Of a stretch of 64,000 bases of DNA, positions 3,154-37,942 are shown one piece after another. How positions within the stretch are numbered: the first letter of the stretch is position 1; each line of letters opens with the position of its first letter. This DNA is from Candidatus Edwardsbacteria bacterium RifOxyA12_full_54_48 (GTDB taxonomy: Bacteria > Edwardsbacteria > AC1 > EtOH8), in contig MFFN01000007.1 of assembly GCA_001777915.1 (NCBI GenBank), positions 4,807 through 68,806 on the forward strand, written 5' to 3'. Made by a program: the position numbers and the translations under genes. The notes under the pieces were generated by a model that worked only from the letters and a program-made list of their open reading frames with translations, did no database searches and was not told where the DNA came from.

Positions 3154-4236
3154 TTGAAGCAAAAAGCCATTCTGGTCGGCAGTGTGCTGGGTCGGGCTAG
3201 CGTCTTTGAGGAAGAGGAATCTTTAAAGGAGTTGGCCCGTCTGGCGGATACCGCCGGGGCCTCGGTGATAGACCACCTGGTGCAAAGGCGGGTCCGTCCC
3301 GACGCCACCTATTTCATCGGCAAGGGCAAGGTGGAGGAGTTGGCGCTGGCCGTGGCTGACAGCCGGGCTGATCTGGTGATATTCGATCACAGCCTGACCC
3401 CCAGCCAGGCCTCCAATATACAGGCCCAGCTGGATTGCCGGGTGGTGGACCGGGCGGAGCTGATCATGGATATTTTTGCCAGGCAGGCCAAAAGCGCCGA
3501 ATCCAAGATCCAGGTGGAACTGGCCCAGCTGCAATACCGCTTCTCCCGTTTGGTGGGGGCCGGACTGGAGATGACCGACCCCGGGGCCGGGATCGGGACC
3601 AGGGGGCCGGGAGAGAAACAGTTGGAGCTGGACCGGCGAAAGATCAGGCATAGGATAGCCCGGCTCAAGCAGGAGCTTAAAAAGATAGAACAGCAGAGGA
3701 GGACCCAGCGAAAATCCCGGGCCGGTGTTTTCAAGATATCCCTGGTGGGATACACCAATGCCGGCAAATCCACCCTGATGAATCTGCTGTCCCGGGCCGG
3801 GGTCAAAGTGGAGGACCGGCTGTTCGCCACTTTGGATGCCACCACCCGGGCGGTGGTGCTGGCCTCGGGGGAAAAATTCCTGCTGACCGATACGGTGGGC
3901 TTCATCCGGCGCCTGCCCCATCAGCTGGTGGCCTCGTTCAAGGCCACCCTGGAGGAGGTCAACCAGGCCGACCTGGTGCTGCAGGTGGTGGACAGCCCCC
4001 ATCCCCTCTATCTTAAAGAGATCGCCGCGGTGGAGGAGGTGTTAAAGGAGATCAAGGCCGACCGTCCGGAGTTGTTGGTGTTCAACAAGACGGATCTGCT
4101 GGACCCGGATACCCTGGACGGCCTGCGGAGGAATTATCCCGGCGCGGCGTTCCTTTCCGCCCTGACCGGCGAGGGCCGCCGGGAGCTGGAGGACATGATT
4201 CGGCAAAGAATGGAATCTCCGGGATGGGGGGAATAA
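3154..4236 (+). CDS. hflX: GTPase HflX
   Basis: 360 aa. G-domain motifs 'ISLVGYTNAGKSTLMNLL' (G1) and 'LLTDTVGFIRRLPHQLVASFKATLEEV', characteristic of HflX. TTG start. Confidence 0.85.
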   Translation: MKQKAILVGSVLGRASVFEEEESLKELARLADTAGASVIDHLVQRRVRPDATYFIGKGKVEELALAVADSRADLVIFDHSLTPSQASNIQAQLDCRVVDRAELIMDIFARQAKSAESKIQVELAQLQYRFSRLVGAGLEMTDPGAGIGTRGPGEKQLELDRRKIRHRIARLKQELKKIEQQRRTQRKSRAGVFKISLVGYTNAGKSTLMNLLSRAGVKVEDRLFATLDATTRAVVLASGEKFLLTDTVGFIRRLPHQLVASFKATLEEVNQADLVLQVVDSPHPLYLKEIAAVEEVLKEIKADRPELLVFNKTDLLDPDTLDGLRRNYPGAAFLSALTGEGRRELEDMIRQRMESPGWGE

Positions 4237-6490: not shown

Positions 6491-7432
6491 ATGAAATATT
6501 TTATAAAATCGTGGCCTTACCTCGGTTTGGCCTTGTTGTCGCTATTCGGCTGCGGCCCCCAACAAAGCAAATCCGATGAGACCCAGACCGCCGGAAGGAT
6601 AGTGGTCAAGGGGGAGGATCTGGCCATCAGAATGATCAGGCGCGAAGCCCAGTCTTTTATGGCCCTGTACCCCAAATCCAATATCGCGGTTGATGAAGGC
6701 GGCTCCAAGGCGGCGATTGCAGCTCTCAACGAAGGCCGGGCCAGGATCGCGGTGATGAACCGCCCCATAACCCGCACCGAGGATTCCATAATCAAAACCA
6801 ACGGCGGCCTGGCCAAAGAATACAAGATAGCCTACGACGGGCTGGCGGTGATTGTCAATTCCCAAAATAAGATACAGCGGCTGGATTTTGAACAATTATC
6901 GGGGATATTTTCCGGAAGGATCACCAGCTGGCGCCGGTTGGGCGGCAAGATAGAAAACCTGGTCCCGGTGATCCCCGGACCCAATATGGGCCATTACGAA
7001 TACTTTCAGCAGCTGGTCATGGACGGCGGGGGATATGCCGCCAAAACATATCCCTGCACCACCACCGCCCAGATAGTCGAGCTGGTAAAGAATCATTCCA
7101 GCGCCATAGGACTGGTCTCCATGAGCGCCCTTTACCGTGATTGGGACGTATGGCCGCCGGTCAAGGAAACCGGAATAAAAGCCCTGGAGATAGCCCAGGT
7201 CAAGGAAAGCGGGTTTTTTTATCCCAATCAGAAAACGGTCCATGAAGGGAACTATCCTTTAAGCCACCCCCTGTATATGTATGTCAATGATGTTCTGGAG
7301 CAGACCTATTCCCAGGGGATGTCCAGCCTGGCCCACGGATTCATCACCTATATTTCTTCGGCCGAGGGGCAGAAGATAGCGGCCCAGCAGGGCTATGTGC
7401 CGGCCACCATGCCGGTGACCATCAAGAAATGA
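6491..7432 (+). CDS. PstS-family phosphate ABC transporter substrate-binding protein (periplasmic binding protein fold)
   Basis: Signal-peptide/lipobox-like N-terminus 'LALLSLFGCGPQQ'; PBP-like segment 'GGSKAAIAALNEGRARIAVMNRPI'. ATG at 6491 preferred over the TTG at 6470, which overlaps the -10 box. Confidence 0.6.
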   Translation: MKYFIKSWPYLGLALLSLFGCGPQQSKSDETQTAGRIVVKGEDLAIRMIRREAQSFMALYPKSNIAVDEGGSKAAIAALNEGRARIAVMNRPITRTEDSIIKTNGGLAKEYKIAYDGLAVIVNSQNKIQRLDFEQLSGIFSGRITSWRRLGGKIENLVPVIPGPNMGHYEYFQQLVMDGGGYAAKTYPCTTTAQIVELVKNHSSAIGLVSMSALYRDWDVWPPVKETGIKALEIAQVKESGFFYPNQKTVHEGNYPLSHPLYMYVNDVLEQTYSQGMSSLAHGFITYISSAEGQKIAAQQGYVPATMPVTIKK

Positions 7433-7478
7433 TACTATGAAACGGCGGGTATTAAATTAGATACCGGAGGTGGTTAAA

Positions 7479-8153
7479 ATGCACAAGTCTTTTTTGAAAT
7501 ATATTTACGCAATTCTTTCGTTATTATTATTTGTAGAATATATTCCGGCGCAGAATATTGAAAGGGACGAAACAGCAAATGGCGATGATTTATATCAAGA
7601 TACAATAAATATAAAAAAAATAAATAGCAACCTGAATAGTGAACAATATTATTACCCCCCCATGAAACACTTAATGTTGGAAATGGGAGGTAGTACAGTT
7701 GTGGGTACCCTGGGCACGATGGCCATTGGTTCAATAATACACCCTACTGAAAATGCGAATACAAATGGAGAGATATCTGATATTTATCAGCCTTTTGATA
7801 TCCCCATCATATATTGCACGATTTCTTCAATAACAGTGTATGTGGTTGGCAGATCATTAAAAACCAGAGGTTCTCTTGTTTGGTCCGTCGGTATGGCAAA
7901 CGTAATACCTCTGGGGATAATGTCATACGGTTACATAAGTGGTAAACCAGAAGATTATCGGCCAGCTGTTTATGTTTCAAGTATATTTGCACCCTTAATG
8001 GCAACTGTTGCCTATAATATTACAGCTGTGCAACAAAGCAAGAAGGACTTGAAGCATTCGTGTAATTCTACAATAAACACTTGTATTGCATGGAAGTCAA
8101 ATGATATAACAAAGAAAGCTAACCCCTATATAATTATTCAATATAATTTTTAA
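7479..8153 (+). CDS. Hypothetical membrane protein (signal peptide plus about 4 TM segments), AT-rich ORFan
   Basis: GGAGG at 7466-7470, 8 nt upstream of the ATG. N-terminus 'MHKSFLKYIYAILSLLLFVEYIPAQNIE' resembles that of the next ORF. AT-rich codon usage unlike the flanking genes. Confidence 0.5.
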   Translation: MHKSFLKYIYAILSLLLFVEYIPAQNIERDETANGDDLYQDTINIKKINSNLNSEQYYYPPMKHLMLEMGGSTVVGTLGTMAIGSIIHPTENANTNGEISDIYQPFDIPIIYCTISSITVYVVGRSLKTRGSLVWSVGMANVIPLGIMSYGYISGKPEDYRPAVYVSSIFAPLMATVAYNITAVQQSKKDLKHSCNSTINTCIAWKSNDITKKANPYIIIQYNF

Positions 8154-8202
8154 TTAGGATGATAGTTGTGAAAATTAAAAACAAATACAGGGGGAAGAAA
8201 AA

Positions 8203-8562
8203 ATGTGCAAGCCAGTATTAAAATATATGTGCATAGTTCTTTCACTGATATTGTTTGCGGGCTATTTGCCTGCGCAGGTTATTGAAAAAAGTCAAGTTGA
8301 TAGTATTGCTGATGCGCAAGCAGGTTCTGTTAAAATTGATGGAATAAAACAAAGCGATAACACTGCTAAAATGGAAGCCGAAAATGATAGTACTGCCAAG
8401 GCAGATACTATTAGCCAAAAAATAAGCGATAAAGAAAAAGAAGAATTGCGCAAGGAAAAGAAAAAGGCTTTGATTGGGTTGGCAATAGTGGGTGGTATAA
8501 TAGTGACATTTTTATTTCTCGGATATGTGGCCAGCGAGTTGGGTAGTGATGGACCACGCTAA
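8203..8562 (+). CDS. Hypothetical secreted/anchored protein with Lys/Glu-rich middle and C-terminal TM segment, AT-rich ORFan
   Basis: 119 aa. N-terminus 'MCKPVLKYMCIVLSLILFAGYLPAQVIE' is paralogous to the 7479 ORF signal region. C-terminal hydrophobic 'LIGLAIVGGIIVTFLFLGYVA'. Confidence 0.5.
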   Translation: MCKPVLKYMCIVLSLILFAGYLPAQVIEKSQVDSIADAQAGSVKIDGIKQSDNTAKMEAENDSTAKADTISQKISDKEKEELRKEKKKALIGLAIVGGIIVTFLFLGYVASELGSDGPR

Positions 8563-8580
8563 ACGATCAACTGTAACAAG

Positions 8581-11500
8581 GTGATAATTATGTTTCTAAA
8601 GCAAATTTTCATAGCCCTGTTGTTAAGTGCATCAATTTGTTCAGCTGCAGATTCAGATGGTAATGGTGTGCCGGATGAAGTTGAACAGGCATTGGTTGAA
8701 AGGTTTAAACCTTGCGTAGTGCTTCCGTATAGCGATAGAGGTGTTGCCCCGGAGCCGGTTGATATAATGCATGTAAATAGTTATATAACCGGTTATAATA
8801 GCGTTAGGGAATATTATTATAAGGTGCCAAAATTATGGGTTTCGTTTTATGCATTAGCTGGTGGGGACTATTGTGGCACCCGTCCTTTATTTCGGGTCTA
8901 CCAACAATTATATATTGATTATTTAGCAACTTGGGATATGCCTATAACCTTTGCGACGGGTAAATTCTCGAACGTAACTTCGGAAACATACACTTATAGC
9001 GGCTATATACCCGATAGCGACTATAAAAATCAAAAATATGCCATAAGGCTACATGCCGATTATGGCGGTCCTGATAATGGTGGTGGTTATTATGACCAGC
9101 CGGGTGGTTGGTATGATGCATATTTAAACGGACGTACTGTTACCAGCGGCACAGCAAGTTTTACATGGGATAAAGGGTCCAACTATCCTGCAACAACATA
9201 CGCACATCTATTTGTAGAAAGTGGTGAAACAACGATCCAATATTACTTTTTTTACCCATTTAACGATGGCTGGAATAATCATGAGGGAGATTGGGAACAT
9301 ATTAACGTTGTTTTAACTGGCCAAGACCCCGCAACTGCACAAATAAAAAGAATCTATTATTATTTCCATGATCTTTGTACTATTAGCTGGCCAACAGGGA
9401 CAGAACCAAGCGGATACCAGAATTTTTATAATGTACTGGATGGTACACACCCTGTCGTCTTCGTCGGGGGTTCGCTTTCTGCAGCAGGTGGAGCAGGTGA
9501 GGGTAGCCATGGTTCTTATCCGACATTTGGAATTTGGCCCGACATAAAGTATTACCAAGATGAAGCTGTTACCACACATACCGATTATTCTAAATATATA
9601 CATTATAATAGTATTAATGCACAAATAATTAAAGGGCGTGAAGATTATGATTATAATGTAAACCCGGAGATGAGCTGGTTAGGCGCTAACATACGATGGG
9701 GGCATATATGTGTAGCCTCGCCTGGTGATTGGCAGCAGACGTTTGATGTTGGTCAACGTTCACCGAAAGGACCAGCTTGGCAAGAAACGTGGCGAAATAA
9801 TTATGCAGGCTATACTGCTTATTATGGCCCCCCCTACAGTGTGCCTTATTCATGGACCTGGCCAACCGATAACACAGCTCCAACGGTAGCAATAAATTAT
9901 CCCAGTTCTGGCAGCTATTTTATAAAAAGTCGCCAATATAGAATCCAATGGTACGCAACAGATAATATTGGCGGGACAAACGGTATAAAAAATTGCTTTT
10001 TGTATTATTCTATTGACGGCGGTTATAACTGGACGGCAATTTCCGGCGCTAATCCGATATTGAATTACAATTGGTTCAACTGGACAGTGCCGGATGTTGA
10101 ATCAAAAAATTGCAAAATTAAAGTAAGTGCTTATGATGCTATGGGCTATAGCGCTGAAACTATTAGCCCGACTTTTACCATAGGTTCAATTTTTGCTGTG
10201 CCGACAATTTCGGGTAGCGTCGTTTCTTCATCTTCAAAAGCCGAGTTGCCGGATGTTCGTCTTGCATCAAATGTTAACAAACCCTATGCCGACCAAGCTA
10301 AATATAAACCAAGGTATTGTGAATTTTTATGGGCAGGCCGTGTTTATAATAGTAGCATTATTGATTGCGGCACATATTATAGTGCAAATATATTAAATGA
10401 AGCAGTATCATTGCCAAGAACATATACGGCAAAATGGGTCTACAATATTTGGGAAGGCGGTGTTGTGGTTGGCATGGTAGAGGGGCCAATCTCGAGTTCA
10501 ATTACGGTATACCCACCCAATCCCAACGACCCAGTCGTTGCTGAAACCAACACTTCCGAGGCCACGGCCTATTCCAATGGCAAGAAAATAGTGGTGGATA
10601 ATGCCGGCAAAATACATTCTGTTTTTGCTATCAGTGACAGCGTGTATTATTCATCGTCCATAGATGATTGCGAAACTTGGTCAACCCCGACTGCCGTGGG
10701 TATTGGCAAACGCCCGGCCATAGAAATAACGGCCGCGAACATGCCCACTATTTGCTGGAATAACGGCAATCGCCTCTACAGCACAAAAAAGGCAAGCGGC
10801 GCATTTGAAGAACCGCAACTTATTTACACCGGCCCCGAGGGTTCGGAAATATCCTACCTTTCCTACGTTCTGGATCAAAACACCAATAATTCATATCTGG
10901 GCTGGGTAGACGAAGGCGCTACCGGTTCTTCGGTGTTGATCGCTACCTATAATCCCTCAACTTCTGCAAATCTATCTCCAACCCCAATTGATCAGGGCGG
11001 CGCCGACGCTTTCAAATCGCCGTCACTGGCCTTGGATAAAGCCGGAAACTTGAAGATTGCCTGGAGCCATTCCGGCAAGGTTTATTATAAAGACAACAGC
11101 GAATTTTTCGAGATGGGTGATAACGGCATTCACCCCATAGTTGACACTTATGGCGATAAAACCACGGTAGTGTGGCAAGAAGAAATAGCGCCAAATATTT
11201 ATCAAGTAGTTAAAAAGACCAAAGGATTAACGGGGTGGTCGGATAAAGAAATAATATCATACCCCGATTCCTTGAATGCCGACTTCCCGGTTGTGGCGGC
11301 TGCGGGGCAGTATGTATACAGTAAAAATGTAAATGGCAGCGATTATGATTTGATATGGAATGCAGAATATGATAACGGCTGGTCTATTCATACCCAAAAC
11401 CTTTCCGGCGCACAGGGTGGCATTTCCCGTTATCCGTCTATAGCTTTTAAACAGGGCTGGCCCAAGTCCAAGTTGTATGTGCTTTGGACCGAGGAAATGC

Positions 11501-12294
11501 CAGCAAAAGGCTCTAAGGCAATTGCCGCGCCATTAGTAAAAGCCTACCCAATGTCTGTTGATCCGGTGCCATGTTTCTATGTAGACTTGGGAACCGAAGA
11601 AGCGGGCAATTTTACTATCCAGAAAAAAGGCACGTTTTACTATGGATTGCATCCTGGTTTTACTGTAGATTATCACCCATCAATGCTTAAATATAATTTC
11701 CAAAATCTGGATAAAAACAAACGCTACAGAATTAAAGTTACATATTATCATGAATTTGATAAAGCCATTAAACAAACGCTATCAGTAGACAAAACCTTTA
11801 ATGCAAAATCCAATATTGAGCCCAAAACGGTTGTTACCGAAGAACATTGGATTCCCAATAGTTGTATAAAAGATGGGCAGATAGAGGTAACGATAGCCAA
11901 AATTATTGGTGAATATGCGGTTTGTTCGGTTATAGCTCTCTATGAATATGACCGGGATTGCGACGGTAAAACCTCCGAAGACATCGCCGAAAGCACCAGC
12001 AAGACAGTTAATGTATACAGCTATGAGCTGATGCAGAACTACCCCAACCCCAATACCGGCAAAACGGCCATCAAATATCAATTAGCCCAGCCGGGGAAAG
12101 TCAACCTGAAAATCTACAACACCTTGGGGCAAGTGGTAAAAACCTTGGTTTCGCAGGAACAGCAACCAGGATATTATAATGTAGCCTGGGGTGGTAGAGA
12201 TAATACCGGCAAAACAACAGCCAATGGTGTGTATTTCTACAGATTAGAAGCTGGCGATTTTAAAGCCACCAAGAAGATGGTAGTGATCAGGTAA
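8581..12294 (+). CDS. Very large secreted protein with BNR/Asp-box-like repeats and a T9SS (Por) C-terminal sorting domain
   Basis: 1237 aa with signal peptide. Asp-box-like 'YSIDGGYNWTAI' and 'SSSIDDCETWS'. N-terminal 'NHEGDWEHINVV' segment of uncertain family. C-terminal ~85 aa 'NYPNPNTGKTAIKYQL...KIYNTLGQVVKTL...GVYFYRLEAGDFKATKKMVVIR' matches the T9SS CTD pattern. AT-rich 5' half. Confidence 0.7.
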   Translation: MIIMFLKQIFIALLLSASICSAADSDGNGVPDEVEQALVERFKPCVVLPYSDRGVAPEPVDIMHVNSYITGYNSVREYYYKVPKLWVSFYALAGGDYCGTRPLFRVYQQLYIDYLATWDMPITFATGKFSNVTSETYTYSGYIPDSDYKNQKYAIRLHADYGGPDNGGGYYDQPGGWYDAYLNGRTVTSGTASFTWDKGSNYPATTYAHLFVESGETTIQYYFFYPFNDGWNNHEGDWEHINVVLTGQDPATAQIKRIYYYFHDLCTISWPTGTEPSGYQNFYNVLDGTHPVVFVGGSLSAAGGAGEGSHGSYPTFGIWPDIKYYQDEAVTTHTDYSKYIHYNSINAQIIKGREDYDYNVNPEMSWLGANIRWGHICVASPGDWQQTFDVGQRSPKGPAWQETWRNNYAGYTAYYGPPYSVPYSWTWPTDNTAPTVAINYPSSGSYFIKSRQYRIQWYATDNIGGTNGIKNCFLYYSIDGGYNWTAISGANPILNYNWFNWTVPDVESKNCKIKVSAYDAMGYSAETISPTFTIGSIFAVPTISGSVVSSSSKAELPDVRLASNVNKPYADQAKYKPRYCEFLWAGRVYNSSIIDCGTYYSANILNEAVSLPRTYTAKWVYNIWEGGVVVGMVEGPISSSITVYPPNPNDPVVAETNTSEATAYSNGKKIVVDNAGKIHSVFAISDSVYYSSSIDDCETWSTPTAVGIGKRPAIEITAANMPTICWNNGNRLYSTKKASGAFEEPQLIYTGPEGSEISYLSYVLDQNTNNSYLGWVDEGATGSSVLIATYNPSTSANLSPTPIDQGGADAFKSPSLALDKAGNLKIAWSHSGKVYYKDNSEFFEMGDNGIHPIVDTYGDKTTVVWQEEIAPNIYQVVKKTKGLTGWSDKEIISYPDSLNADFPVVAAAGQYVYSKNVNGSDYDLIWNAEYDNGWSIHTQNLSGAQGGISRYPSIAFKQGWPKSKLYVLWTEEMPAKGSKAIAAPLVKAYPMSVDPVPCFYVDLGTEEAGNFTIQKKGTFYYGLHPGFTVDYHPSMLKYNFQNLDKNKRYRIKVTYYHEFDKAIKQTLSVDKTFNAKSNIEPKTVVTEEHWIPNSCIKDGQIEVTIAKIIGEYAVCSVIALYEYDRDCDGKTSEDIAESTSKTVNVYSYELMQNYPNPNTGKTAIKYQLAQPGKVNLKIYNTLGQVVKTLVSQEQQPGYYNVAWGGRDNTGKTTANGVYFYRLEAGDFKATKKMVVIR

Positions 12295-12343
12295 ATAATT
12301 CCCAACAGCCACATTTTTAATTATGTAATGAGGAAATTCTGAT

Positions 12344-13846
12344 ATGAAGTTATTGAAGATCACCGATTTTGTTCTGATAGCTTTGGTGCTGTGCCTAATC
12401 GGCTGCGCCACCACCTCCCAGGCGGGAAAGCCCAAGGCTGAGGATCTCCTGAAGCAGGGAATCACTGCAGACGATCAGGGCGATTTCGACCAGGCCATCG
12501 ACCTATACCGTCAGGCCATCCAGCGGAAATTCAAGCTCAAAGAAGCCCACTACCGCCTGGGACAGATCTATGTCGAACGGAAGATGTTCGATGAGGCCAT
12601 CGCCGAGTTCAAAACGGCCCGGGATCTGAAATACCCCCAGGCGGTGACCGAGCTGGCCGTTACCTACCATAAGGCCGGGAAGCTGGACGAGGCCGAGGCC
12701 CTGATCAAGGAACTGCTGGTCAAGAAGCCCAATGACGTGGACCTCAAATACCGGCTGGGCAAGGTTTATCTGGACAAGGGGCAGCTGAACGAGGCCGGGG
12801 AGGTCTTCCGCCAGGTGCTGCAGATGGATCCCAACAATGCCAGCGCTCATAACGGTCTGGCCAACCTCTATTTCCGCCAGCGAAACTACAACCAGGCCAT
12901 GGCCGAGTATCTGCTGGCCATCAAACTCAACCCCGATTTCACCGACGTCAATCTGGACCTGGGCAGCGCCTACTTTCAGAGCGGCAAATATGCCGAGGCC
13001 TCCAGATATTTTAAAAAATACACCGAGCTGTCGCCCAAGGACGCCGCCGGCCACTATATGCTGGCCAAGGCTTATCAGATGCAGAAGGACACCGCCCTGA
13101 TCCAGCCGGCCATCATCGAGGCCCAAAAGGTCACCAAGATGGACCCTGAGAACGACGGAGTCTGGTATCTTCTGGGATCTTTGCAGTATGAGGTCAAGAA
13201 TTATATTGAATCGGCCCGGTCCTTCAGTAAATCACTGGAGCTGTCGCCGGGGGATCCCACCCGCTGGTACGAGGCCGCCAGGGTCTATATCCGGGCCGGC
13301 AGCGCTTATTCGGCCAACAAGGATACCGCAAATTCCAAGCTGATGTTCGATGCGGCGATCAACGCCTACCAAAAAAGGATGGAGTTGGACCCCTCCAAGG
13401 TGGAGGACACCTATTACGATATGGGCAATGCTTATTACTATGCCGGATATTATGATGAGGCCATACAGTGGTACCTGAAACGAATCGAAAAGAACCCGGC
13501 AACTGCTTTTGGCGCTTTGATGAACATGGGCTACAGCTATTCATTGAAGGGTCAGGCCAGCAAGGCTTCCAAGGCCGAGGTCCGGGTCATTTACGAAAAG
13601 GCCATCAACGCCTTCCTGCAGGCCAGGGCCCTGAAGATGGGAAATAATACCAAACCCGTCAAAGAGGCCATTCCGGCCATGGAAGCCCTGTCCCAGCATT
13701 ATCTGTATATTTTCAACAAATTTAACGAGAAGGCCTTTAAAAACAAGGCTTCGGCCGAAGCCAATGCCATTCTAAAGATAGATCCGGCCAATAAAATCGC
13801 CAAGGAGGTTCTGGCCGCCCTTAAACCCAAGGTGGAGGTCTGGTAG
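12344..13846 (+). CDS. TPR-repeat lipoprotein
   Basis: 500 aa. Lipobox 'LCLIGCATT'. Multiple TPR-like repeats (e.g. 'AHYRLGQIYVERKMFDEAIAEFKTA', 'AHNGLANLYFRQRNYNQAMAEYLLAIKLNP'). Confidence 0.7.
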   Translation: MKLLKITDFVLIALVLCLIGCATTSQAGKPKAEDLLKQGITADDQGDFDQAIDLYRQAIQRKFKLKEAHYRLGQIYVERKMFDEAIAEFKTARDLKYPQAVTELAVTYHKAGKLDEAEALIKELLVKKPNDVDLKYRLGKVYLDKGQLNEAGEVFRQVLQMDPNNASAHNGLANLYFRQRNYNQAMAEYLLAIKLNPDFTDVNLDLGSAYFQSGKYAEASRYFKKYTELSPKDAAGHYMLAKAYQMQKDTALIQPAIIEAQKVTKMDPENDGVWYLLGSLQYEVKNYIESARSFSKSLELSPGDPTRWYEAARVYIRAGSAYSANKDTANSKLMFDAAINAYQKRMELDPSKVEDTYYDMGNAYYYAGYYDEAIQWYLKRIEKNPATAFGALMNMGYSYSLKGQASKASKAEVRVIYEKAINAFLQARALKMGNNTKPVKEAIPAMEALSQHYLYIFNKFNEKAFKNKASAEANAILKIDPANKIAKEVLAALKPKVEVW

Positions 13847-13968
13847 ATATAGCGGCCTTAATATTTATTACGGCTTTGAATATTAGGAAACGGGTAAATT
13901 CAATTAACCGGCTCTCAATTTTGAGAAGCCCAATAAAAACCAAAAAGCACAGGAGGTAGTTTAAAACA

Positions 13969-14790
13969 ATGTTGAACGGACTGATGAATGCTCCGATGAT
14001 CGTCAAAATTTTGATCATGGGAGTCGTCCCGGCTATCGTAGCCGCTGGGTTGGGCATCGCCCTGGCCCGCACCAAGAAGATCGGATTGGTGACCCTGATA
14101 CTTTACGTCATCGGGCTGGCAGTATCATTTGTGATCTATAAGACCCTTCCGGAGTATATACAGGCCGGAGGCCCGGTGGTGATCATCCTGGTATTCCTGC
14201 TGGTGCTGTTGTTCACCTATATCATCGAGCGCAGCCTGACCATCGGCCGGGCCCGCGGTGCCAAGAACCTGACGGTCTTCATGGAGGAATTCCGGGAACT
14301 GCTGAGGGCCGGCAACGTCACCGGGGCCATCGCCGCCTGCAACGCCCAAAGAGGCTCCACCGCCAACGTTCTGAGGGCCGGACTGGAGAAATATCTGGCC
14401 CTGCAGAATGAGAACCTCACGCCCGACAAGAAAAGCGCCGAGTTGCTCCGGGCCATCGAAGAGGCCAACATGCTGGAGACCCCGCTGTTGGAGCGCAACC
14501 TGATAATGCTGACCACCATCGCCTCCATCGGGACCATGGTGGGCCTGCTGGGCACCACCCTCGGCATGATCCGCGCCTTCCAGGCCATGGCCCATGCCGG
14601 CGCCCCGGATGCCTCCGAGCTGGCCCGCGGCATCTCCGAGGCCCTGATCAACACCGCCGGCGGGTTGTTCAACGGCATCGGCGGCATCGTGGCCAACAAC
14701 TATTTCATGAACAAGGTCTCCCTGTTCCAGTTCGGCACCGACGAGGCCATTTACGAGATGCAGCAACTTTTGACGATAGGAGAAAAATAA
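13969..14790 (+). CDS. exbB: MotA/TolQ/ExbB proton-channel family protein
   Basis: 273 aa. Signature 'LTTIASIGTMVGLLGTTLGMIRAFQAM ... EALINTAGGLFNGIGGIVANNYF'. Confidence 0.8.
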   Translation: MLNGLMNAPMIVKILIMGVVPAIVAAGLGIALARTKKIGLVTLILYVIGLAVSFVIYKTLPEYIQAGGPVVIILVFLLVLLFTYIIERSLTIGRARGAKNLTVFMEEFRELLRAGNVTGAIAACNAQRGSTANVLRAGLEKYLALQNENLTPDKKSAELLRAIEEANMLETPLLERNLIMLTTIASIGTMVGLLGTTLGMIRAFQAMAHAGAPDASELARGISEALINTAGGLFNGIGGIVANNYFMNKVSLFQFGTDEAIYEMQQLLTIGEK

Positions 14791-22400: not shown

Positions 22401-23187
22401 CTAGCAATGATAACTGTTCCGACACCTCGCCGGCCGATAAGGGGCGCAGGGCGGGGTCCTTGTTCAACAGCCGGAGGATCAGGGAATCTATGGGTTTGGG
22501 GAGCGAGCGGTTGAAAGACGAGGGGAGAGGAGGCGGCTGGGATAGGTGCTTGCGGGCCAGTTCCTTGGCACCACTGGACTCGAAGGGGAGGCGTCCGGCG
22601 AACATCTGGAACATCAGGACACCTAGAGAGTAAAGGTCGGACCGTCCGTCGGCGGCCTGCCCGGCTATCACCTCGGGGGATATGTAGGCCGGGGTGCCGG
22701 TTCTGCGCGAAGTCGCGTTGGCGGCATAGCTGGCCTGCCCGAAGTCAAGCAGTTTTACCGATCCGTTCCCGTCGGTAAGTATATTGCTGGGCTTGACGTC
22801 CAGGTGGATTATCCTGCGGCTGTGTATATACTCCAGGGCATCGCACAGCTGGGCCGTCAGCAGGCATCGTTCCTCGATGGCCAGCCCCTGGCAGGCTGCC
22901 AGGATGTCCGGCCCCGGGATGAATTCCATCACCAGACAACAGTTGCCCTGGTATGACTCATAGCTGTAGACCCGGGCTAGGTTGGGATGGGCCAACTCGG
23001 ACAGGACCTGAAACTCATGGCTGGCGGCATTTATATCTACCAGATTGCCGGGAAATATTTTGACGGCATATATTTTATCATCAGTCAGGTCCTTTGCCTT
23101 GTAGACCTGACTGAAGGATCCCTGCCCCAACAGCTCCAGGGTCAGATACTTATTGGCGATGATATGTCCCGAAGGCAATATATTCAT
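19489..23187 (-). CDS. Ser/Thr protein kinase fused to a STAND-type P-loop NTPase and TPR repeats
   Basis: Kinase motifs 'LGQGSFSQVYKAKD' and 'HRRIIHLDVKPSNIL'; Walker A 'FVSGETGIGRTKLL'; multiple C-terminal TPR-like repeats. ATG at 23187 ('MNILPSG') preferred over the TTG at 23244. Confidence 0.8.
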   Translation of the reverse strand: MNILPSGHIIANKYLTLELLGQGSFSQVYKAKDLTDDKIYAVKIFPGNLVDINAASHEFQVLSELAHPNLARVYSYESYQGNCCLVMEFIPGPDILAACQGLAIEERCLLTAQLCDALEYIHSRRIIHLDVKPSNILTDGNGSVKLLDFGQASYAANATSRRTGTPAYISPEVIAGQAADGRSDLYSLGVLMFQMFAGRLPFESSGAKELARKHLSQPPPLPSSFNRSLPKPIDSLILRLLNKDPALRPLSAGEVSEQLSLLAGAQPGRAVTGRTSFIFKSKMVGRDKELSELRQALNNAVGGQGGCLFVSGETGIGRTKLLNEFALQAQISECQVIWARCYEEQSAAFDIILQIIRQLLPLAQGCCHQALTEYGPLLAEICPALAALPEIRDLPPAPLLPAGEKHLRRLDAISQFIIRTLESSPSAAAALLLESIQWIDRESLEAICYLVRNVPKYRVLLVGSSRSDDLPPGHHLLQAIESLTVENLAEQIFLKRLGQGEAAELLANVLPGIQSYRPLLDRIAAQAEGNPLLIEESVQQLLDQGLVVKRRGQWQPAIRDLERINLPGSLSKAMESKLNNLSASQLAMVQAMSVMERPSSLDEIAALSGAATPQVSLDLTDLINRSLLAAIHGPDGRQLYGLNHSAIAKMVYQSLSPQAAKTLHRRAAEMMEQEGRSSLQDLSSLARHWEMAGRPKKSREYHLRAGETLFEYSKGQAIFHFEKALTQGPNDAASMERLQKLYYLSGEYSRALKLARELFEQRGPSPDLFYKLGRCQERLGNYDDSMEYFRQGLAVAGNNPEATARLMGAMAVTCLSRGEYRTAERTCLDALKILPEGGRGAVEAGLYNTLGQAYWHLAEWGQALSAHRQSLAIKEREGSLYGIAASYNNLGLVYYRMYDWDRSAECHQKSFAIREKIGDISGLARSYNNLALIYRHLYDWEKALDYHGKCLQTMERIGASFETAVSLINIGLIHKARGEWDQALWNYNRAIQLAVNIGARDVMQDAFIRKAEFYLSLGSLKDADLFCQKSLDLARELGRLETGRAVNLSGRIAHMRHQWAKAKDDLSKAREIFSELDIKAGEAYILKNLADLHRELGQLEESSALADKSLSLAQRVEEQQLAAEAMLLKGELLELKGLEGLKYLEWALEIAGRVNIAETTWPILSAIARYWARQKRYRPALENYQKALQLIKQALANISQPDLKTAYVLSPVRRRLFKEIKRLKQEVLSIAG

Positions 23188-23605
23188 TGTAACAAAAAGA
23201 TACGATTCGATTTTCAGTTTATCATAAAAACTTGGCAAATGCAATAATTATTTTAAGTAAACTTTACTATTTCAGTTTTATCGAATTTGTTTTCATTTTA
23301 AATTTAAAATATCAATACCAAGTAATTTATATGCGTAACAAAATGATGCATATAAATTATTGTTAATACATTGTAATACAATAAAATAGAATTATACTTT
23401 GATTGAAATCCAAATTGTACGATATCATTAATATGAAAAATGAAACAAAATGATACATATTATGGTGGCGACAGAATCAATCGTCAATATATCATAATAT
23501 TCAAGCTATTGTTATATAATAAGTTAAAAAAGTAAAATTAATTCTGGTATGAAAAATGCTTATATTCTGACATAACAATAATAACATCAAAAAGGGGTAG
23601 TACAA

Positions 23606-26600
23606 ATGAAAAAGGTAGGTTTACTGGTAGCGGCCGTCATTATTCTGGCCGGATTGGCATCAGCCCAGACCACCATCTTCTCAGACAACATGACCGGCTT
23701 CCCCACGGGTTGGACGCTTTCGCCCACCACCGGTGGCTGGACCAAGACCTCCACCAAGTATTACAGTTCATCCTACAGCGCCATGTGCGACAATGTCAGT
23801 CCTTACGGGGCCAACCAGAACAATTATATAACCAAAACGGTCAGCCTATCGGGATATAGCAACGTCGCCCTGAAATTCTACATCTGGCAGTACAGCGAGA
23901 GCGGCTACGACTATATCCGGGTGCAGTACCTGGTGGGCAGCACCTGGACCACCGCCTGGCAGAGGGCCGGCAGCTATCAGTCTTGGGCCCAGCAGTCGGT
24001 CAGCATTCCCAACACCGCCACCCAGGTCCGATTTTATTTCAACTCCGACGGCAGCGTCCAGAACACCGGGGTGTACATCGATGACGTGGTCCTTACCGGG
24101 ACAGCGGCCACCGTTACCCAGAATGATGCCGGGACTGGCACCGATGCCGGCAACACCATAGCCACCGCTACCACGGTAAATCCGGGTTCGTGGACCGGCT
24201 GTTATTTGGATGCCACTGATCGAAACGACTATTACAAGTTTAACGTTACCGCGGGCCAGGTAATCAAACTAAAAGTAACCCCGCCCTCAACGGCCGACTA
24301 CGACCTCTATCTGCATAACACATCGCAGACCCAGGTTGGCGCCAGCACCCAGGGAACCGGCTTGGTTGACTCCATTGTCTACACCGCCACCACTACCGGC
24401 TACTGGTATTGCCGGGCCTACGAATACAGCGGCACCGGCAACTACTCATTGCTGATCTCGGTGAGCGGCGGGACCACCCCGACAACGATTCTGGCGATCA
24501 ACACGACCTCGTGGGCGCCGGTGGCGGCGGGCGGGACCAGCTCGGCAGTCAGCGTGACCAACAGCGGCACGAGCGGCAGCGTGATCGCCTACACGGTGTC
24601 CGACAACGCCACTTGGCTGACCACCTCGGCCGCCAGCGGCAATACCCCGGGCAGCTTCACCATGACGGCCTCGGCCAACACCGGTGCGGCGCGAAGCGCC
24701 ACGGTCACTGTGGCCGCGACCGGCCAGACCTCCAAGACCATCACCGTCAACCAGGCGGCAGCCAGCACCGGCGGAGCTGAATGGACCGTCATGATCTACC
24801 TGAACGCCGACAACAACCTGGAGACCGACGGGATCAACGATTTTCTGGAGATGGCCGCCGCCTCATACAGTTCGGGCAAGATCAACGTCATCGTTCAGAT
24901 GGACCGGGCCTCGGGCTACGCCACCACCTATGAGAATTGGACCGGCTGCAAGCGTTTCAAGATCGCCAGCGGGATGACCCCCACTGCGGCCTACCAGATA
25001 TCGGACCTGGGCGAGGTGGACATGGGCAGTCCCACCACCCTGGTCAACTTTGCCACCTGGGCCATCCAGAACTACCCGGCCAACCGCTATTCCCTGGTTA
25101 TGTGGGATCACGGCGACGGCTGGTACAAGACCGATGCCAGCCCCATCAAGGGCTTCTCCAACGACGACTCTCACGGTTCGGTGATCGGCATAGCCAACGG
25201 CGAATTCGCCAGCGCCATGGCCCAGATCAAGACCGCCCTGGGCCGGAACCTGGACCATATCGGCTGGGATGCCTGCCTGATGGGCATGTGGGAGGTGCTG
25301 GACATATCCCGCAATTACGCCAACGTGGCCAACGTCTCCGAGGAGACCGAGGGGGCCGCCGGCTGGTATTACACCACCTGGCTGAACGTCATGAACACCA
25401 CCCCCACCACCAGCGCCATTGACATGGGCAAAGCCATCATCAACGGCACCACTCAATCGACCCTGTCGGTGGTGGACCTGACCCTGATCTCCAATCTGAC
25501 CACCAAGGTCAACACCCTGGCCACCGAGCTGATGGCGACCCGGGGGGCCGGCCTGGGCGCCAGCATCAGCACGGCGCTTAACAATACCCTCAAGTTCTCC
25601 ACCAGCTATTTTTCATATCACATAGATCTGTCCGACTTCGCCGCCAAGGTCAAGGCCGCCATCACCACCCGGCCCACCCTGACCACCGCCTGCGACAACG
25701 TCATCAGCGCGGTGACCTCGGCGGTCAAACTGTACAAGAACTCCTCCACCTACGCCAATGCCCGGGGCATCGCGGTCTATCACTGCAAGATCGACGGCTC
25801 CAATTACGATACCGCCTACAACAGCCTGCCCATCGCCTCCAGCACGGTGTGGGATGAGTACATCAAGGGCGGCTCCAGCGGCGGAACCACCGCAAATTAC
25901 ACCAAGAGCACCGCCACCTACAGCTGGGATGCCTCGGCCACCACGGCCACCGGCCTGACCGGGGACGACCAGAGCGTCAGCAAGTCCATCGGTTTTGCCT
26001 TCAACTTCTACGGCACCAGCTATACCACCGTCAACATCTGTTCCAACGGGTTCCTCAATTTCGGCACCAGCTCCACCGCCTACACTCCGGCCGCCATCCC
26101 CAACACTGCGGCCCCCAACGCCCTGATCGCCGGCTTGTGGAGGGACCTTAACGTATCGGGCGGCGGAACCATCACCTACTACTCTTCGGCCACCAAATTC
26201 GTGGTGTCATTCAACGCCGTCAAGAACTACTCCAACACCAGCCTGCAAACCTTCCAGATGATCCTGACCCCCGACGGCAAGATCAAGATCCAGTGGGGTG
26301 GCATCACCACCGAGACCTATGCTTCGGGGGTGGAGAACCAGGGCGGCACGCTGGGCGTGGCGGCCACCGCCGCGGCCAATTCGGCGGCGCTGTTCACCCC
26401 GCCGGCGGCCTGGAGCAGCCCGATCAATGAGAATGAATTGGAGACCAGGCTCAATCCGCAGGGGATGCCGCTATCCAACCAGCTGTTCCAGAACGCCCCC
26501 AATCCGGTCAGATATAAAACCCTGATCGCCTTCCAATTGGAGAAGCCGGGCGCTGTTTCCCTGAAGATCTACAATCTCAACGGACAGCTGGTCAGAACCC

Positions 26601-26749
26601 TGGCCTCGGGGCAGCATAATTCCGGATATCATCAGGCCATGTGGGACGCCAAGGATGATGCCGGAAGGAAGGTGGCTGACGGAGTATATATCTATAAGCT
26701 GGCCTGCGGCGAGTTCAACCACGCCAAAAAAATGGTGCTGGTCAAATAA
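23606..26749 (+). CDS. Secreted clostripain-like (peptidase C11-type) cysteine peptidase with pre-peptidase domain and T9SS C-terminal sorting domain
   Basis: 1047 aa with signal peptide. 'EWTVMIYLNADNNLE', 'LVMWDHGDGWY' (putative catalytic His) and 'IGWDACLMGMWE' (putative catalytic Cys) resemble C11-family signatures. C-terminal 'NAPNPVRYKTLIAFQL...KIYNLNGQLVRTL...GVYIYKLACGEFNHAKKMVLVK' T9SS CTD. Confidence 0.7.
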   Translation: MKKVGLLVAAVIILAGLASAQTTIFSDNMTGFPTGWTLSPTTGGWTKTSTKYYSSSYSAMCDNVSPYGANQNNYITKTVSLSGYSNVALKFYIWQYSESGYDYIRVQYLVGSTWTTAWQRAGSYQSWAQQSVSIPNTATQVRFYFNSDGSVQNTGVYIDDVVLTGTAATVTQNDAGTGTDAGNTIATATTVNPGSWTGCYLDATDRNDYYKFNVTAGQVIKLKVTPPSTADYDLYLHNTSQTQVGASTQGTGLVDSIVYTATTTGYWYCRAYEYSGTGNYSLLISVSGGTTPTTILAINTTSWAPVAAGGTSSAVSVTNSGTSGSVIAYTVSDNATWLTTSAASGNTPGSFTMTASANTGAARSATVTVAATGQTSKTITVNQAAASTGGAEWTVMIYLNADNNLETDGINDFLEMAAASYSSGKINVIVQMDRASGYATTYENWTGCKRFKIASGMTPTAAYQISDLGEVDMGSPTTLVNFATWAIQNYPANRYSLVMWDHGDGWYKTDASPIKGFSNDDSHGSVIGIANGEFASAMAQIKTALGRNLDHIGWDACLMGMWEVLDISRNYANVANVSEETEGAAGWYYTTWLNVMNTTPTTSAIDMGKAIINGTTQSTLSVVDLTLISNLTTKVNTLATELMATRGAGLGASISTALNNTLKFSTSYFSYHIDLSDFAAKVKAAITTRPTLTTACDNVISAVTSAVKLYKNSSTYANARGIAVYHCKIDGSNYDTAYNSLPIASSTVWDEYIKGGSSGGTTANYTKSTATYSWDASATTATGLTGDDQSVSKSIGFAFNFYGTSYTTVNICSNGFLNFGTSSTAYTPAAIPNTAAPNALIAGLWRDLNVSGGGTITYYSSATKFVVSFNAVKNYSNTSLQTFQMILTPDGKIKIQWGGITTETYASGVENQGGTLGVAATAAANSAALFTPPAAWSSPINENELETRLNPQGMPLSNQLFQNAPNPVRYKTLIAFQLEKPGAVSLKIYNLNGQLVRTLASGQHNSGYHQAMWDAKDDAGRKVADGVYIYKLACGEFNHAKKMVLVK

Positions 26750-32684: not shown

Positions 32685-32850
32685 CCTCCCTGGCCCTCCC
32701 CGCAGCGGAGAGGGAATGGACATTGCGAAGAGGCGAGTTAATGTAAGAAAAAGCCAAGCGTTTAATGCTGTGAGTGTACTGAAATGAATTTTACTAAAGG
32801 TGCGTATTCAAATAACTATTACTAAGATTGTAGAAAAAATAGGGGGTTTT

Positions 32851-33093
32851 ATGGAAATTGTGAGAAAAGCACCTGCAGCCTTGAATCTTTTATGGAAAGA
32901 AGGTTTTTTTAAGAAGGATAAAAGTATAGCTGAAGTAGAAACTGTGTTGCACGAGAAAGGTTATAATTTTGGTTCTGCCACACGTAAGGCACTAGAGCGT
33001 ACAAAGTTTCTTATGCAAAAAGGTGAAAGGGGTAATAGGAGGTTCATACAGAAGCACCCATATGTGGAGATAAAAAATGAAAAACACAAGTAA
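32851..33093 (+). CDS. Hypothetical small basic protein (AT-rich island, paralog 1)
   Basis: ATG at 32851 with AGGGGG 5-10 nt upstream. Shares a 'KEGFFKKDKSIAEVETVLHEKGY...RKALER' region with the next ORF. Confidence 0.45.
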   Translation: MEIVRKAPAALNLLWKEGFFKKDKSIAEVETVLHEKGYNFGSATRKALERTKFLMQKGERGNRRFIQKHPYVEIKNEKHK

Positions 33094-33400
33094 GGATTTA
33101 TTGAAAGTATTAGTAGATCACGAAAAACGTATATCGAGGTTAGAAAGTTCGGGCGCAAAAATTAAACCACCAAGAGTAAAGAAAAATATCTCTCTGCCAG
33201 ATCATATTCTTGCATTAAGAGACAAGGGTTTCTTTGCCAAACCTAAAACAGTAGAAGATACACAGAATAGGTTATCAGATTTCTATTCATGTGATAAGAA
33301 CCGTGTAGCAGTGGCACTATTAAGGTTATCTACCAAAAAGCAATTACGAAGAACTTCAACAAAGAAAAACGATAAAAATAATATTGCGTTTACATGGTGA
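33077..33400 (+). CDS. Hypothetical small basic protein (AT-rich island, paralog 2)
   Basis: 107 aa. 'DKGFFAKPKTVEDTQNRLSDFY...RVAVALLRL' aligns with the previous ORF. Lys-rich C-terminus. Confidence 0.45.
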   Translation: MKNTSKDLLKVLVDHEKRISRLESSGAKIKPPRVKKNISLPDHILALRDKGFFAKPKTVEDTQNRLSDFYSCDKNRVAVALLRLSTKKQLRRTSTKKNDKNNIAFTW

Positions 33401-34182
33401 GCAACATGAATAAACCCGATATAATAAAAAAAATAAAACTTATACAAATTAAAAAGAATACAATCCAGTATTATATTATACAATTATTAATTAAGGGAAT
33501 ACTAAACGACATAGTTGATTCGGCGGGTTTGGCTCATCTTATTAATGAAGAGTATCAAAGGAAGATTAAACCCTCAGATATTGTGGCATGCATTAAGCCC
33601 ATTGTTAGTAACGATATATTACGTAGTCTTATTATCAAAAAGGGTAAACGGTCATATAGGTATTGGTATCCAGCTTGGATAGCAAAGGATGTCGCTATTT
33701 CTAGGGTCAATAAAACAAAAGAAAAGGTATTGTTTATTACTGGACATGAAGCATGGTCAGACCAAAATAAAAGATTAAAAAGTATTTTCGATATTTTGGA
33801 AGGCGAAATAGATATCATCGATCCTTATTATGGATATAATACCCTGCATGCGCTATCATTATTTGGGAAAACAAGAAAGGTCCGTTTTCTAACTTGCAAT
33901 ACTGGTAATAGTGAAAAACGAGATATTACAAATTTTAATTTGCAGTTTGCAAGATTTAAAAAAGAATTTCGTAATATATTATTCAAACAATTTGCGTTAC
34001 CTGAAATACACGATAGGTATATTTTGTCTAAAAATGCAATTGTTATCATCGGTCATGGGATAAAAGATATTGGCAACAAAGAGTCCTTTGTCATTTATCT
34101 AGAGAAAGAATTGGTTTCCAAAATATTGCCAACACTGCGAAAACTATTCAATCTTAAATGGAGCAATTCAATAAATATATAA
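33394..34182 (+). CDS. Hypothetical protein (AT-rich island) with a C-terminal segment resembling a degenerate PLD-like (H-x-K-type) motif
   Basis: 262 aa. 'IHDRYILSKNAIVIIGHGIKDIG' resembles the PLD/Nuc 'HxK(x)4D(x)6G' signature but with Arg in place of Lys. No confident family assignment. Confidence 0.4.
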   Translation: MVSNMNKPDIIKKIKLIQIKKNTIQYYIIQLLIKGILNDIVDSAGLAHLINEEYQRKIKPSDIVACIKPIVSNDILRSLIIKKGKRSYRYWYPAWIAKDVAISRVNKTKEKVLFITGHEAWSDQNKRLKSIFDILEGEIDIIDPYYGYNTLHALSLFGKTRKVRFLTCNTGNSEKRDITNFNLQFARFKKEFRNILFKQFALPEIHDRYILSKNAIVIIGHGIKDIGNKESFVIYLEKELVSKILPTLRKLFNLKWSNSINI

Positions 34183-36892: not shown

Positions 36893-37942
36893 ATGCTTTT
36901 TGGAAAAAAACCAGCCACCATAGGTTTGGACATAGGCAGCAGCCAGATAAAGATCGTCGAGATCCAGAAGACCGGCAAGGGGCTGTCGCTGGTCAATTAC
37001 GGGATCGCTCCGCTGCTGCCGGAGGCCATCGTCGAGGGCGAGATCATGGACCGGACCCTGGTGATAGACACCATCAGGACCCTTTTGGAGACCAGGCAGA
37101 TAAAAAGCAATAATGTGATAACTGCCGTCTCCGGCCGGGGCGTCATCGTCAAGCGGATCAATATGGACAAGATGAAGGAGCAGGAGGCCCGGGAGAGGAT
37201 CAAGTGGGAGGCCGAACAGCATGTGCCGTTCGAGATCTCCGATGTGGTGCTGGATTTCCAGATCATCAACCCCGATTCGGGCAACAACCAGATGGAAGTG
37301 CTGCTGGTGGCGGCCAGGAACGAGACGGTGAACGTCCATCTGGACCTGCTGTCCGGGGCCGGCTTGAACCCGATCCTGCTGGATTACGGGGCCTTTGCCG
37401 TGCAGAATGCCTTCGAGGCCAGTTACGAAATGCCGGCCGACGAGATCATAGCCCTGGTCAATATCGGGGCCGATAACACCAACATCAATTTTGTCAAGAA
37501 CGGCGTGCCCTATTTCACCCGGGACCTCCCCATGGCCAGCAACTCCTGCCTGCAACTGATGCAGAAGAACCTGGGGATCTCCTACGAGCAGGCCTCCGAG
37601 TTGATCAAGGGCGAGACGGTGTCCGACGTCAGCCAGGAATCGGCGGCCTCGGTGTTCCAGTCCTTCTCCGACGATTTTGCCTCCTCCATAGAGCGAACCC
37701 TCTCCTTCCTGGCCATGTCCGGCGGGGGAGAGAGGATGAGCCGGATATATATGTCGGGCGGCGGGGCCCTGATCCCGTCACTTCAGGATCATCTTAAGGA
37801 GAGGTTCGGGATCCCGGTGGAGATCATAAACCCGTTACAAAAGATCAGCTATGATCCGGGCCTGTTCGGAGCCGTAGCCAGCGAAAAGGTTTCCCCCATC
37901 TTGACCCTGGCCATCGGCCTGGGGCTTAGGGAGGTAAAATAA
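36893..37942 (+). CDS. pilM: Type IV pilus assembly ATPase-like protein PilM
   Basis: 'IGLDIGSSQIKIVEI' actin-like N-terminus; 349 aa. Confidence 0.85.
   Translation: MLFGKKPATIGLDIGSSQIKIVEIQKTGKGLSLVNYGIAPLLPEAIVEGEIMDRTLVIDTIRTLLETRQIKSNNVITAVSGRGVIVKRINMDKMKEQEARERIKWEAEQHVPFEISDVVLDFQIINPDSGNNQMEVLLVAARNETVNVHLDLLSGAGLNPILLDYGAFAVQNAFEASYEMPADEIIALVNIGADNTNINFVKNGVPYFTRDLPMASNSCLQLMQKNLGISYEQASELIKGETVSDVSQESAASVFQSFSDDFASSIERTLSFLAMSGGGERMSRIYMSGGGALIPSLQDHLKERFGIPVEIINPLQKISYDPGLFGAVASEKVSPILTLAIGLGLREVK

Follow-up and report, generated by a model that had tools for sequence, protein, structure and literature searches.

The genome of a Candidatus Edwardsbacteria bacterium carries, on contig MFFN01000007.1, an AT-rich island that is a foreign insertion, acquired horizontally. 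We analyzed a 64,000-nucleotide (nt) stretch of this contig, hereafter the window, in which all coordinates are given unless another genome is named. The island comprises three genes on the same strand (7479-12294), which encode two small proteins (orf1 and orf2) and a large protein with a C-terminal sorting domain of the type IX secretion system (T9SS). In our favored explanation, this horizontally acquired, recombining cassette would encode a giant effector, secreted or bound to the surface, that the T9SS exports, the working end of the effector would be an N-terminal domain of the NLP/Vps62 superfamily, and each small protein would be the cognate envelope partner of one type of that domain. 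We assign a probability of roughly one half to this explanation as a whole, that is, a polymorphic effector with cognate membrane partners. Its structural and evolutionary parts alone, comprising the insertion, the fold, the two alleles, their pairing with the small genes, and the breakpoint in the large gene, are highly probable. The features of the island were as follows.

7433..7478, + strand: left junction and spacer, brought in with the island, including the orf1 ribosome-binding site GGAGGT.
7479..8153, + strand: orf1, 224 amino acids (aa), from the list of open reading frames (ORFs).
7479..7565, + strand: leader module of orf1, common to orf2 (16/31 residues, 88-nt DNA alignment).
8203..8562, + strand: orf2, 119 aa, from the ORF list.
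8590..12294, + strand: T9SS cargo protein, 1234 aa (ORF list, public gene call, and C-terminal domain matches).
8590..8649, + strand: Sec signal peptide of the large protein, ...SICSA/ADSDGNG, read from the sequence; homologues align from DxDGNG onward.
8650..9924, + strand: predicted NLP/Vps62-superfamily N-terminal domain (N-domain) of type A, residues ~21-445, with QYYFFYPFND...HEGDWEH at residues 217-237.
9925..10240, + strand: second domain, residues ~446-549, probably immunoglobulin-like from its sequence pattern, with the Asp-box SIDGGYNW at residue 474.
10241..12039, + strand: 3' body, residues ~551-1150, probably beta-propeller-like and then a beta-rich region, with the Asp-box SIDDCETW at residue 690.
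12040..12294, + strand: type A T9SS C-terminal sorting domain (PF13860, PF18962, and TIGR04183).
12295..12343, + strand: right junction, the whole original spacer between the upstream PBP gene and the downstream TPR gene, matching the empty-site spacer of genome L013.

A preliminary description of this DNA had pointed to an AT-rich island with sharp compositional boundaries, and both features were borne out. The GC contents of orf1, orf2, and the large gene were 0.35, 0.38, and 0.43, respectively, against 0.57-0.58 in the flanks, and GC content in 100-nt steps fell from 0.57 to 0.30 at 7433 and rose from 0.34 to 0.61 near 12395. The GC content at third codon positions (GC3) was 0.316, 0.317, and 0.393 for the three genes compared with 0.746 +/- 0.087 for 43 host genes, placing them 4-5 standard deviations below the host mean (z-scores of -5.0, -4.9, and -4.1). 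Such a composition is not a property of all secreted-protein genes in this genome, the condition under which the island would have lost its distinctness, given that the window's second T9SS-tailed protein (23606-26749, Peptidase_C11) has a GC3 of 0.82. The presence of this second cargo gene also makes it likely that the genome encodes T9SS machinery. A scan for promoters and terminators stayed at chance level and returned no terminators.

The insertion is located by empty sites in related genomes. Scanning of species-representative genomes with the downstream TPR protein identified seven Edwardsbacteria/UBP2 genomes (L012-L018) in which PBP is directly followed by TPR and the cassette is absent, none of its three genes having left a trace at this site. 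The PBP-TPR spacer of the empty sites is ~40-55 nt long (195 nt in L014), and in two of these genomes (L013 and L012) the PBP and TPR proteins are 86-94% identical to those of the window. The right spacer of the window (12295-12343) matches the complete empty-site spacer of L013, which places the insertion point right behind the PBP stop codon. Another lineage has full-length homologues of the large protein (P0001 and P0002, 71% and 58% identical, respectively). In L004-L007, the cassette is located within a complex-I-like/group-4 hydrogenase operon, between nuoA-like and nuoB-like genes, and has a GC content of 34-40% in surroundings of 62-63%.

These data bear on the possibility that the AT-richness is native, i.e., that selection on amino-acid composition, expression tuning, or silencing shaped a vertically inherited locus. 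The cassette is AT-rich in every host examined and its proteins are rich in F, Y, M, I, N, and K, as such selection would predict, and signs of mobility were lacking: the ORFs include no integrase or transposase, the island edges show no convincing terminal direct or inverted repeats, and tblastn gave no match to a known phage or plasmid. However, amino-acid content has little bearing on GC3, and GC3 is 0.32-0.39 here against 0.75 in the host; seven related species, some of them with closely similar flanking proteins, have no cassette at this site; the cassette occupies a different site in the other lineage; and another T9SS cargo gene has normal GC. We consider a native origin of the composition very unlikely.

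The only feature that recurs at the junctions is a short motif, AAAT[AG]A(T), which lies over the stop codons at both cassette junctions of the window (7425-7440 and 12290-12300), as well as in L004 (8845-8855 and 13680-13690) and L007 (9265-9275 and 13740-13750). At the hydrogenase site, the AAAT[AG]A-type motif forms an 8-11-nt direct repeat (AAATAGAT / TAAAATAGATT). The motif could represent a target-site duplication, microhomology, or chance.

The island proved to be a mosaic rather than a single block. Three sibling genomes (L009-L011) carry the same locus with flanking proteins 99-100% identical to those of the window, and their orf1 and large proteins are 75% and 66% identical, respectively, to the window's; orf2 is absent, such that orf1 is followed by a large gene with a different N-domain (type B). 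Nucleotide identity between the window and L010 varied along the locus as follows (window positions).

Up to 6700 (genes upstream): about 100%.
6700-7400 (PBP gene, 3' half): 83-96%.
7400-8100 (orf1): 77-89%.
8150-8600 (orf2): no counterpart in L010.
8600-10200 (N-domain plus the adjoining domain): 32-70%.
10200-12300 (remainder of the large gene): 73-98%.
12300-13800 (TPR gene): 96-100%.

A second divergent patch was observed at 13800-14200, where identity with L010 is 60-78% in surroundings of 95-100%; it takes in the spacer between the TPR and ExbB genes together with the 5' end of exbB.

The N-domains of the large proteins fall into two types. Type A N-domains (the window, L004/L030, and L028/L029) are 60-73% identical among themselves, and type B N-domains (L007, L008, and L010) are 66-81% identical among themselves, whereas identity between the types is 35-39%. 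Each type has its own small gene. A homologue of orf2 lies directly upstream of every type A gene (the window, L004 with two tandem copies, L030, and L028/L029), and a homologue of orf1 lies directly upstream of every type B gene (L007, L008, and L010). Co-occurrence of the three genes had been put forward as a check, and they do not form a constant set: orf1, orf2, and type A are found together in the window only, and elsewhere orf1 accompanies type B and orf2 accompanies type A. The flanking DNA of L004 and L007 is 90-99.7% identical and most of their flanking proteins are 94-100% identical, but their large proteins are 66% identical. Since the near-identical pairs window/L010 and L004/L007 carry opposite types, both alleles occur in two species and at two insertion sites.

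Sliding identity along the large protein revealed a switch of partners, i.e., a breakpoint near residue 550. Up to this residue, L004 is the partner of the window and L007 that of L010; beyond it, the pairs are the window with L010 (75-98%) and L004 with L007 (85-100%). The 3' body of the window is 75-98% identical to that of L010 and 60-92% identical to that of L004, and judging from these identities the 3' body tracks the host lineage. Within the large gene of the window, GC3 is 0.27-0.40 in the 5' module, lower than the 0.45-0.55 of most of the 3' body. The small gene, the N-domain, and the next domain appear to constitute one 5' module that is exchanged as a whole.

In the simplest reading of the window, an orf2 and type A module would have replaced a type B module and left orf1 as an orphan; this reading follows from the sibling arrangement of PBP, orf1, and type B. 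Two other loci also carried rearranged cassettes: L004 contains a 45-aa N-domain fragment between its two orf2 copies, and at the PBP site of L031 a decayed orf2 is followed by a type B fragment. Rearrangement of the cassette thus appears to be continuing.

The preliminary description had suggested that the block was acquired as a unit. The foreign insertion is upheld by the seven empty sites, whereas the single unit is contradicted by the mosaic. A single acquisition of one foreign block, with small genes that are paralogues from tandem duplication, would account for the sites left empty in relatives and for the sharp steps in composition; the homology of the leaders of orf1 and orf2 (described below) is real, and tandem duplication of orf2 does occur in L004. 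On the other hand, orf1 and orf2 are alike only in their leaders and have their own orthologues elsewhere, the sibling strain lacks orf2 and has a different N-domain, residues 1-549 and 550-1234 have incongruent histories, and the large gene has a lower GC3 in its 5' part than in most of its 3' part. We regard such a single event as improbable.

The similarity of the leaders had been recognized from the start, and it reflects homology. Of 31 leader residues, 16 are identical between orf1 and orf2, the corresponding DNA aligns over 88 nt, and tblastn against the six-frame window gave an E-value of 6e-7, with no further copy of the leader in the window. Beyond the leader the two proteins are unrelated, as had also been noted. 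In the orf1 product, a leader ending YIPA/Q is followed by a polar stretch and then by four segments that are hydrophobic, and the C-terminus (...YIIIQYNF) is conserved; the product looks like a leader plus four transmembrane helices. The orf2 product comprises a leader ending YLPA/Q, a polar acidic stretch, an invariant ELRKEKKKALIGL juxtamembrane Lys/Glu-rich helix, and a C-terminal transmembrane segment. The assignment of a four-transmembrane type and a Lys/Glu-rich anchored type is therefore supported at the level of sequence. The ...YIIIQYNF end of orf1 was also considered as a possible mark of an outer-membrane beta-barrel, but the AlphaFold2 (AF2) model, although unreliable with a predicted local distance difference test (pLDDT) score of 41, favors helices. 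Both families are rare, with five clusters each for orf1 and orf2 among 5.8 billion proteins.

The leader homology stops just past the Q-x-I-E codons. The left spacer of the PBP site, together with an ATGC(A/G)CA start, precedes orf1 in both the window and L010, whereas in L031 it precedes orf2. The leaders of orf1 orthologues at other sites are less alike. On these sequence comparisons, a common 5' handle for recombination explains the shared leader better than simple duplication of a gene does, since the same spacer and start lead into either small gene; the leader-coding stretch would then serve as the 5' handle for module exchange. For annotation, near-identical signal peptides on unrelated neighbors call for caution, because they can mark a recombination junction instead of a duplication.

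Leader ends of the A/Q form, which correspond to the 'Q-rule' cleavage pattern, were observed in orf1, orf2, and the type B large proteins (window 7545-7560 and 8269-8284; L010 10692-10760; L007 10001-10070), and the leaders of type A large proteins end A/A or A/T, not A/Q. The Q-rule is reported to be specific to Bacteroidetes and not to extend to the whole Fibrobacteres-Chlorobi-Bacteroidetes (FCB) group (PMC5837995). These leaders may point to a Bacteroidota-like donor. In L008, a 160-aa gene with 29% GC (3401-3883) was found just upstream of the orf1 homologue in a low-GC context; its product has a leader, ends ...YHFSK, and resembles a small outer-membrane beta-barrel. In both L008 and L028, the cassette has Tricorn/PD40-type genes on its flanks.

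The large protein most likely starts at ATG 8590, which is preceded by the Shine-Dalgarno sequence AAGGTG and is also the start in public gene calls. A giant T9SS-tailed protein was thus confirmed, with a length of 1234 aa in place of the 1237 aa first proposed. Its N-terminus is a hydrophobic Sec leader ending SICSA/AD, as read from the sequence. The T9SS tail (residues 1154-1235) matched Pfam FlgD_ig (PF13860; 41.1 bits, E = 1.8e-10) and Por_Secre_tail (PF18962; 30.4 bits, E = 4.8e-7) above the cut-off of 27 for both, as well as the NCBIfam type A sorting domain TIGR04183 (41 bits, cut-off 23). The accompanying Asp-box-like repeats were reduced to two clear motifs, at residues 474 and 690, and matches to Pfam BNR and BNR_2 were weak and sub-threshold. 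Searches of Pfam, NCBIfam, and PDB sequences with the large protein and its pieces yielded only the C-terminal domain and the sub-threshold BNR matches.

The N-terminal region, previously described as having no known function, could be assigned a fold by structural prediction. The AF2 model of residues 1-487 had a pLDDT of 72 and a predicted template modeling score (pTM) of 0.77, with most of the core at 80-93. In a Foldseek search with the N-domain model, the top 15 matches were all NLPs (E <= 1e-3), followed by a cliff to E > 0.3. The model therefore indicates that the N-domain carries the NLP beta-sandwich fold. Among 23 relatives, 12 matched NPP1 (PF05630) weakly (best E = 0.0024) and one matched Vps62 (PF06101; E = 1.5e-4), with every one of these matches under the threshold.

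Across the N-domain family, the motif QY-FFYPFND...HEGDWEH is invariant or nearly so. H231, D234, W235, and E236 are invariant, and D226 is nearly so. The heptapeptide of the N-domain is NHEGDWE versus GHRHDWE in NLPs, with residue equivalence based on the motif. GHRHDWE is the cation-pocket heptapeptide of NLPs, and the Vps62 motif is HVGDWEH (PMC13159263). NLPs bind the head-groups of plant sphingolipids and form transient small pores (PMC8916740). An exhaustive profile search showed that the family comprises 3,491 representative clusters at E <= 1e-3 and 282 at E <= 1e-30, and no Pfam model covers it. Its members are secreted proteins of uncultured bacteria and archaea, including at least one archaeal member, and the domain is elsewhere combined with beta-helix, FG-GAP, dockerin, and Peptidase_C11 domains and with T9SS tails. 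Through NLP cytolysins and the unexplained Vps62 domain, the ~3,500 clusters that lack a Pfam model gain a fold and a testable activity.

The cassette was compared with several known systems. The NLP/NPP1 cytolysins (PF05630; 3GNZ, 3ST1, and 9WSC) share the beta-sandwich fold, the sole significant structural match; FYPFND...H-x-x-D-W-E-H parallels their heptapeptide GHRHDWE, and the protein is secreted in both cases. However, NLPs are single-domain proteins of ~210 aa from plant pathogens, whereas the N-domain is an N-terminal module of ~425 aa in a 1234-aa multidomain T9SS cargo protein of an uncultured aquifer bacterium, where it is paired with small membrane-protein genes. Vps62/DUF946 (PF06101) has the closest motif (HVGDWEH versus HEGDWEH), but it is described from eukaryotes and linked there to vacuolar targeting, in contrast to the secreted bacterial and archaeal domain. 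The large protein shares its Sec leader and C-terminal sorting domain with the type A T9SS cargo of Bacteroidota (TIGR04183), the host here belonging to Edwardsbacteria/UBP2. No report of an NLP-type functional domain in a T9SS cargo protein was found in the literature searched.

The genetic organization resembles that of polymorphic toxin-immunity systems (contact-dependent inhibition [CDI] and Rhs). In common with these, the cassette has a conserved delivery body, a swappable end domain tightly linked to a small adjacent gene, an orphan partner, variation among near-identical strains, and recombination at conserved junctions. It differs in that the variable domain is N-terminal, the partner is encoded upstream and is an exported membrane protein, and two alleles were seen. 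A small envelope-protein gene that adjoins and serves a giant T9SS cargo gene is known from SprB-SprF and PorP-like proteins. These partners are PorP/SprF beta-barrels that serve type B C-terminal domains, whereas the tail here is of type A, and no PorP/SprF model in Pfam or NCBIfam matched orf1 or orf2. The cassette combines an NLP-superfamily domain, a T9SS cargo protein, and a polymorphic-effector-like layout of opposite polarity.

From these data, we propose the following mechanism. By analogy with NLP cytolysins, the N-domain probably binds, along with a cation, the head-group of a glycolipid or glycan on a target membrane. The 5' modules A (with orf2) and B (with orf1) would be swapped by homologous recombination, with the spacer and leader-coding sequence as the 5' handle and the conserved body of the large gene as the 3' handle. 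The likeliest role of the small proteins would be to protect or escort a folded membrane-active domain while it crosses the periplasm. We favor this role because T9SS cargo folds in the periplasm before export, where an NLP-like domain could damage the membranes of its producer; nevertheless, a protective-partner role is a tentative proposal, clearly less secure than the explanation as a whole.

A serious rival holds that diversifying selection acts on the large protein as a surface adhesin or antigen. According to this explanation, the protein, for example one that binds a receptor or glycan, is shown on the surface via its T9SS tail, phages, predators, or partner cells select against common 5' modules, and the small proteins are type-matched assembly or anchoring factors. 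Two long-lived alleles in near-identical genomes are compatible with such selection. L004 and L007 also share a second AT-rich T9SS cargo protein that has no NLP-like domain and is equally variable (52% identity), such that variability may be general for exposed T9SS cargo in this group. Furthermore, the domains to which the N-domain is fused elsewhere (beta-helix, FG-GAP, dockerin, and Peptidase_C11) are adhesin-like or enzyme-like, and some proteins with the NLP fold are non-toxic; HaNLP3 (6qbe), which is reportedly one of these, was among the Foldseek matches of the N-domain model. However, this explanation by itself leaves it unaccounted for that each N-domain type has its own unrelated small membrane protein. 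In addition, the acidic cation-pocket motif is strictly conserved in both types and throughout the family, which argues for a conserved biochemical activity and not mere display. We consider the adhesin or antigen explanation possible, at odds well short of even.

Several points weigh against the polymorphic effector. The transfer is left without an explaining mobility gene, phage match, or plasmid match. The pairing of type A with orf2 and type B with orf1 rests on three independent lineages per type, and the short contig of L031 could be an assembly chimera. In a survey of 80 distant loci of the N-domain family, a small membrane ORF lay upstream at 11 of 61 loci compared with 4 of 40 controls, an enrichment that was not significant (p = 0.39), and the small ORFs of these 80 loci had no homology to orf1 or orf2. 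Neither orf1 nor orf2 matched a known family in Pfam or NCBIfam, and the structure of orf1 is not predictable, as its AF2 score indicates. The N-domain model is itself of moderate quality, the N-domain of the window did not match Pfam NPP1 even at E <= 5 or Pfam Vps62, and a profile search of PDB sequences with the N-domain found nothing. Many true NLPs are not cytotoxic, and the membrane-binding or toxic activity of the N-domain is inferred by analogy from fold and motif only. Finally, known polymorphic toxins have a variable C-terminal domain and a downstream immunity gene, a canonical layout that the cassette of the window does not share.

The most far-reaching form of the polymorphic-effector explanation is a new T9SS-delivered toxin with a swappable N-terminal NLP-fold warhead and an upstream-encoded, exported, membrane-anchored immunity protein that would neutralize the warhead in the periplasm of the producer. 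The two warhead/immunity alleles would be held by frequency-dependent selection and exchanged between species via the leader-coding handle. This form is speculative, and we rate it below the protective-partner role and the adhesin explanation. If it is true, the NLP cytolysin fold would move from plant pathology to subsurface conflict among microbes or between microbes and protists. Should the small proteins act in immunity or escort, their layout would be unlike that of known polymorphic toxins, and the question would arise of how a membrane-damaging T9SS cargo protein is kept harmless in the periplasm. Allele-specific, unrelated small membrane proteins occur in near-identical genomes of two species and at two sites, and this pairing is directly testable.

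Other loci were noted in passing. The second giant T9SS-tailed protein of L004 (1-4141) and L007 (324-4556) is 1410-1456 aa long with 42-43% GC; its gene lies between two genes for antiporter-like subunits of the same hydrogenase-type operon and overlaps the start of the following gene, and its product is without an NLP-like domain and 52% identical between the two genomes. This group may generally tend to carry AT-rich, hypervariable genes for T9SS cargo within conserved operons.

Within the window, an AT-rich islet at 32800-34182 comprises three small same-strand genes (97, 107, and 262 aa; GC3 0.27-0.31) with no Pfam match, flanked by a CreD-like gene on one side and by genes associated with anaerobic ribonucleotide reductase on the other. 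Among all genes of the window, the one at 52077-52688 is the most AT-rich (GC 0.265, GC3 0.216); it encodes a 203-aa product whose leader (...FYSC) resembles that of a lipoprotein, and it likewise lacks a Pfam match. Another AT-rich gene (62089-63048; GC 0.32) encodes a secreted protein with DUF4424 and YARHG domains, and its start overlaps the stop of the upstream normal-GC gene. An apparently non-coding AT-rich region of ~1 kb (22500-23600) spans the 5' end and upstream sequence of a minus-strand Ser/Thr-kinase/TPR gene as well as the sequence upstream of the Peptidase_C11 cargo gene. Judged by gene order, sizes, and sequence appearance, a row of pilM/N/O/P/Q-like genes lies at 36893-41585 and is unrelated to the island.

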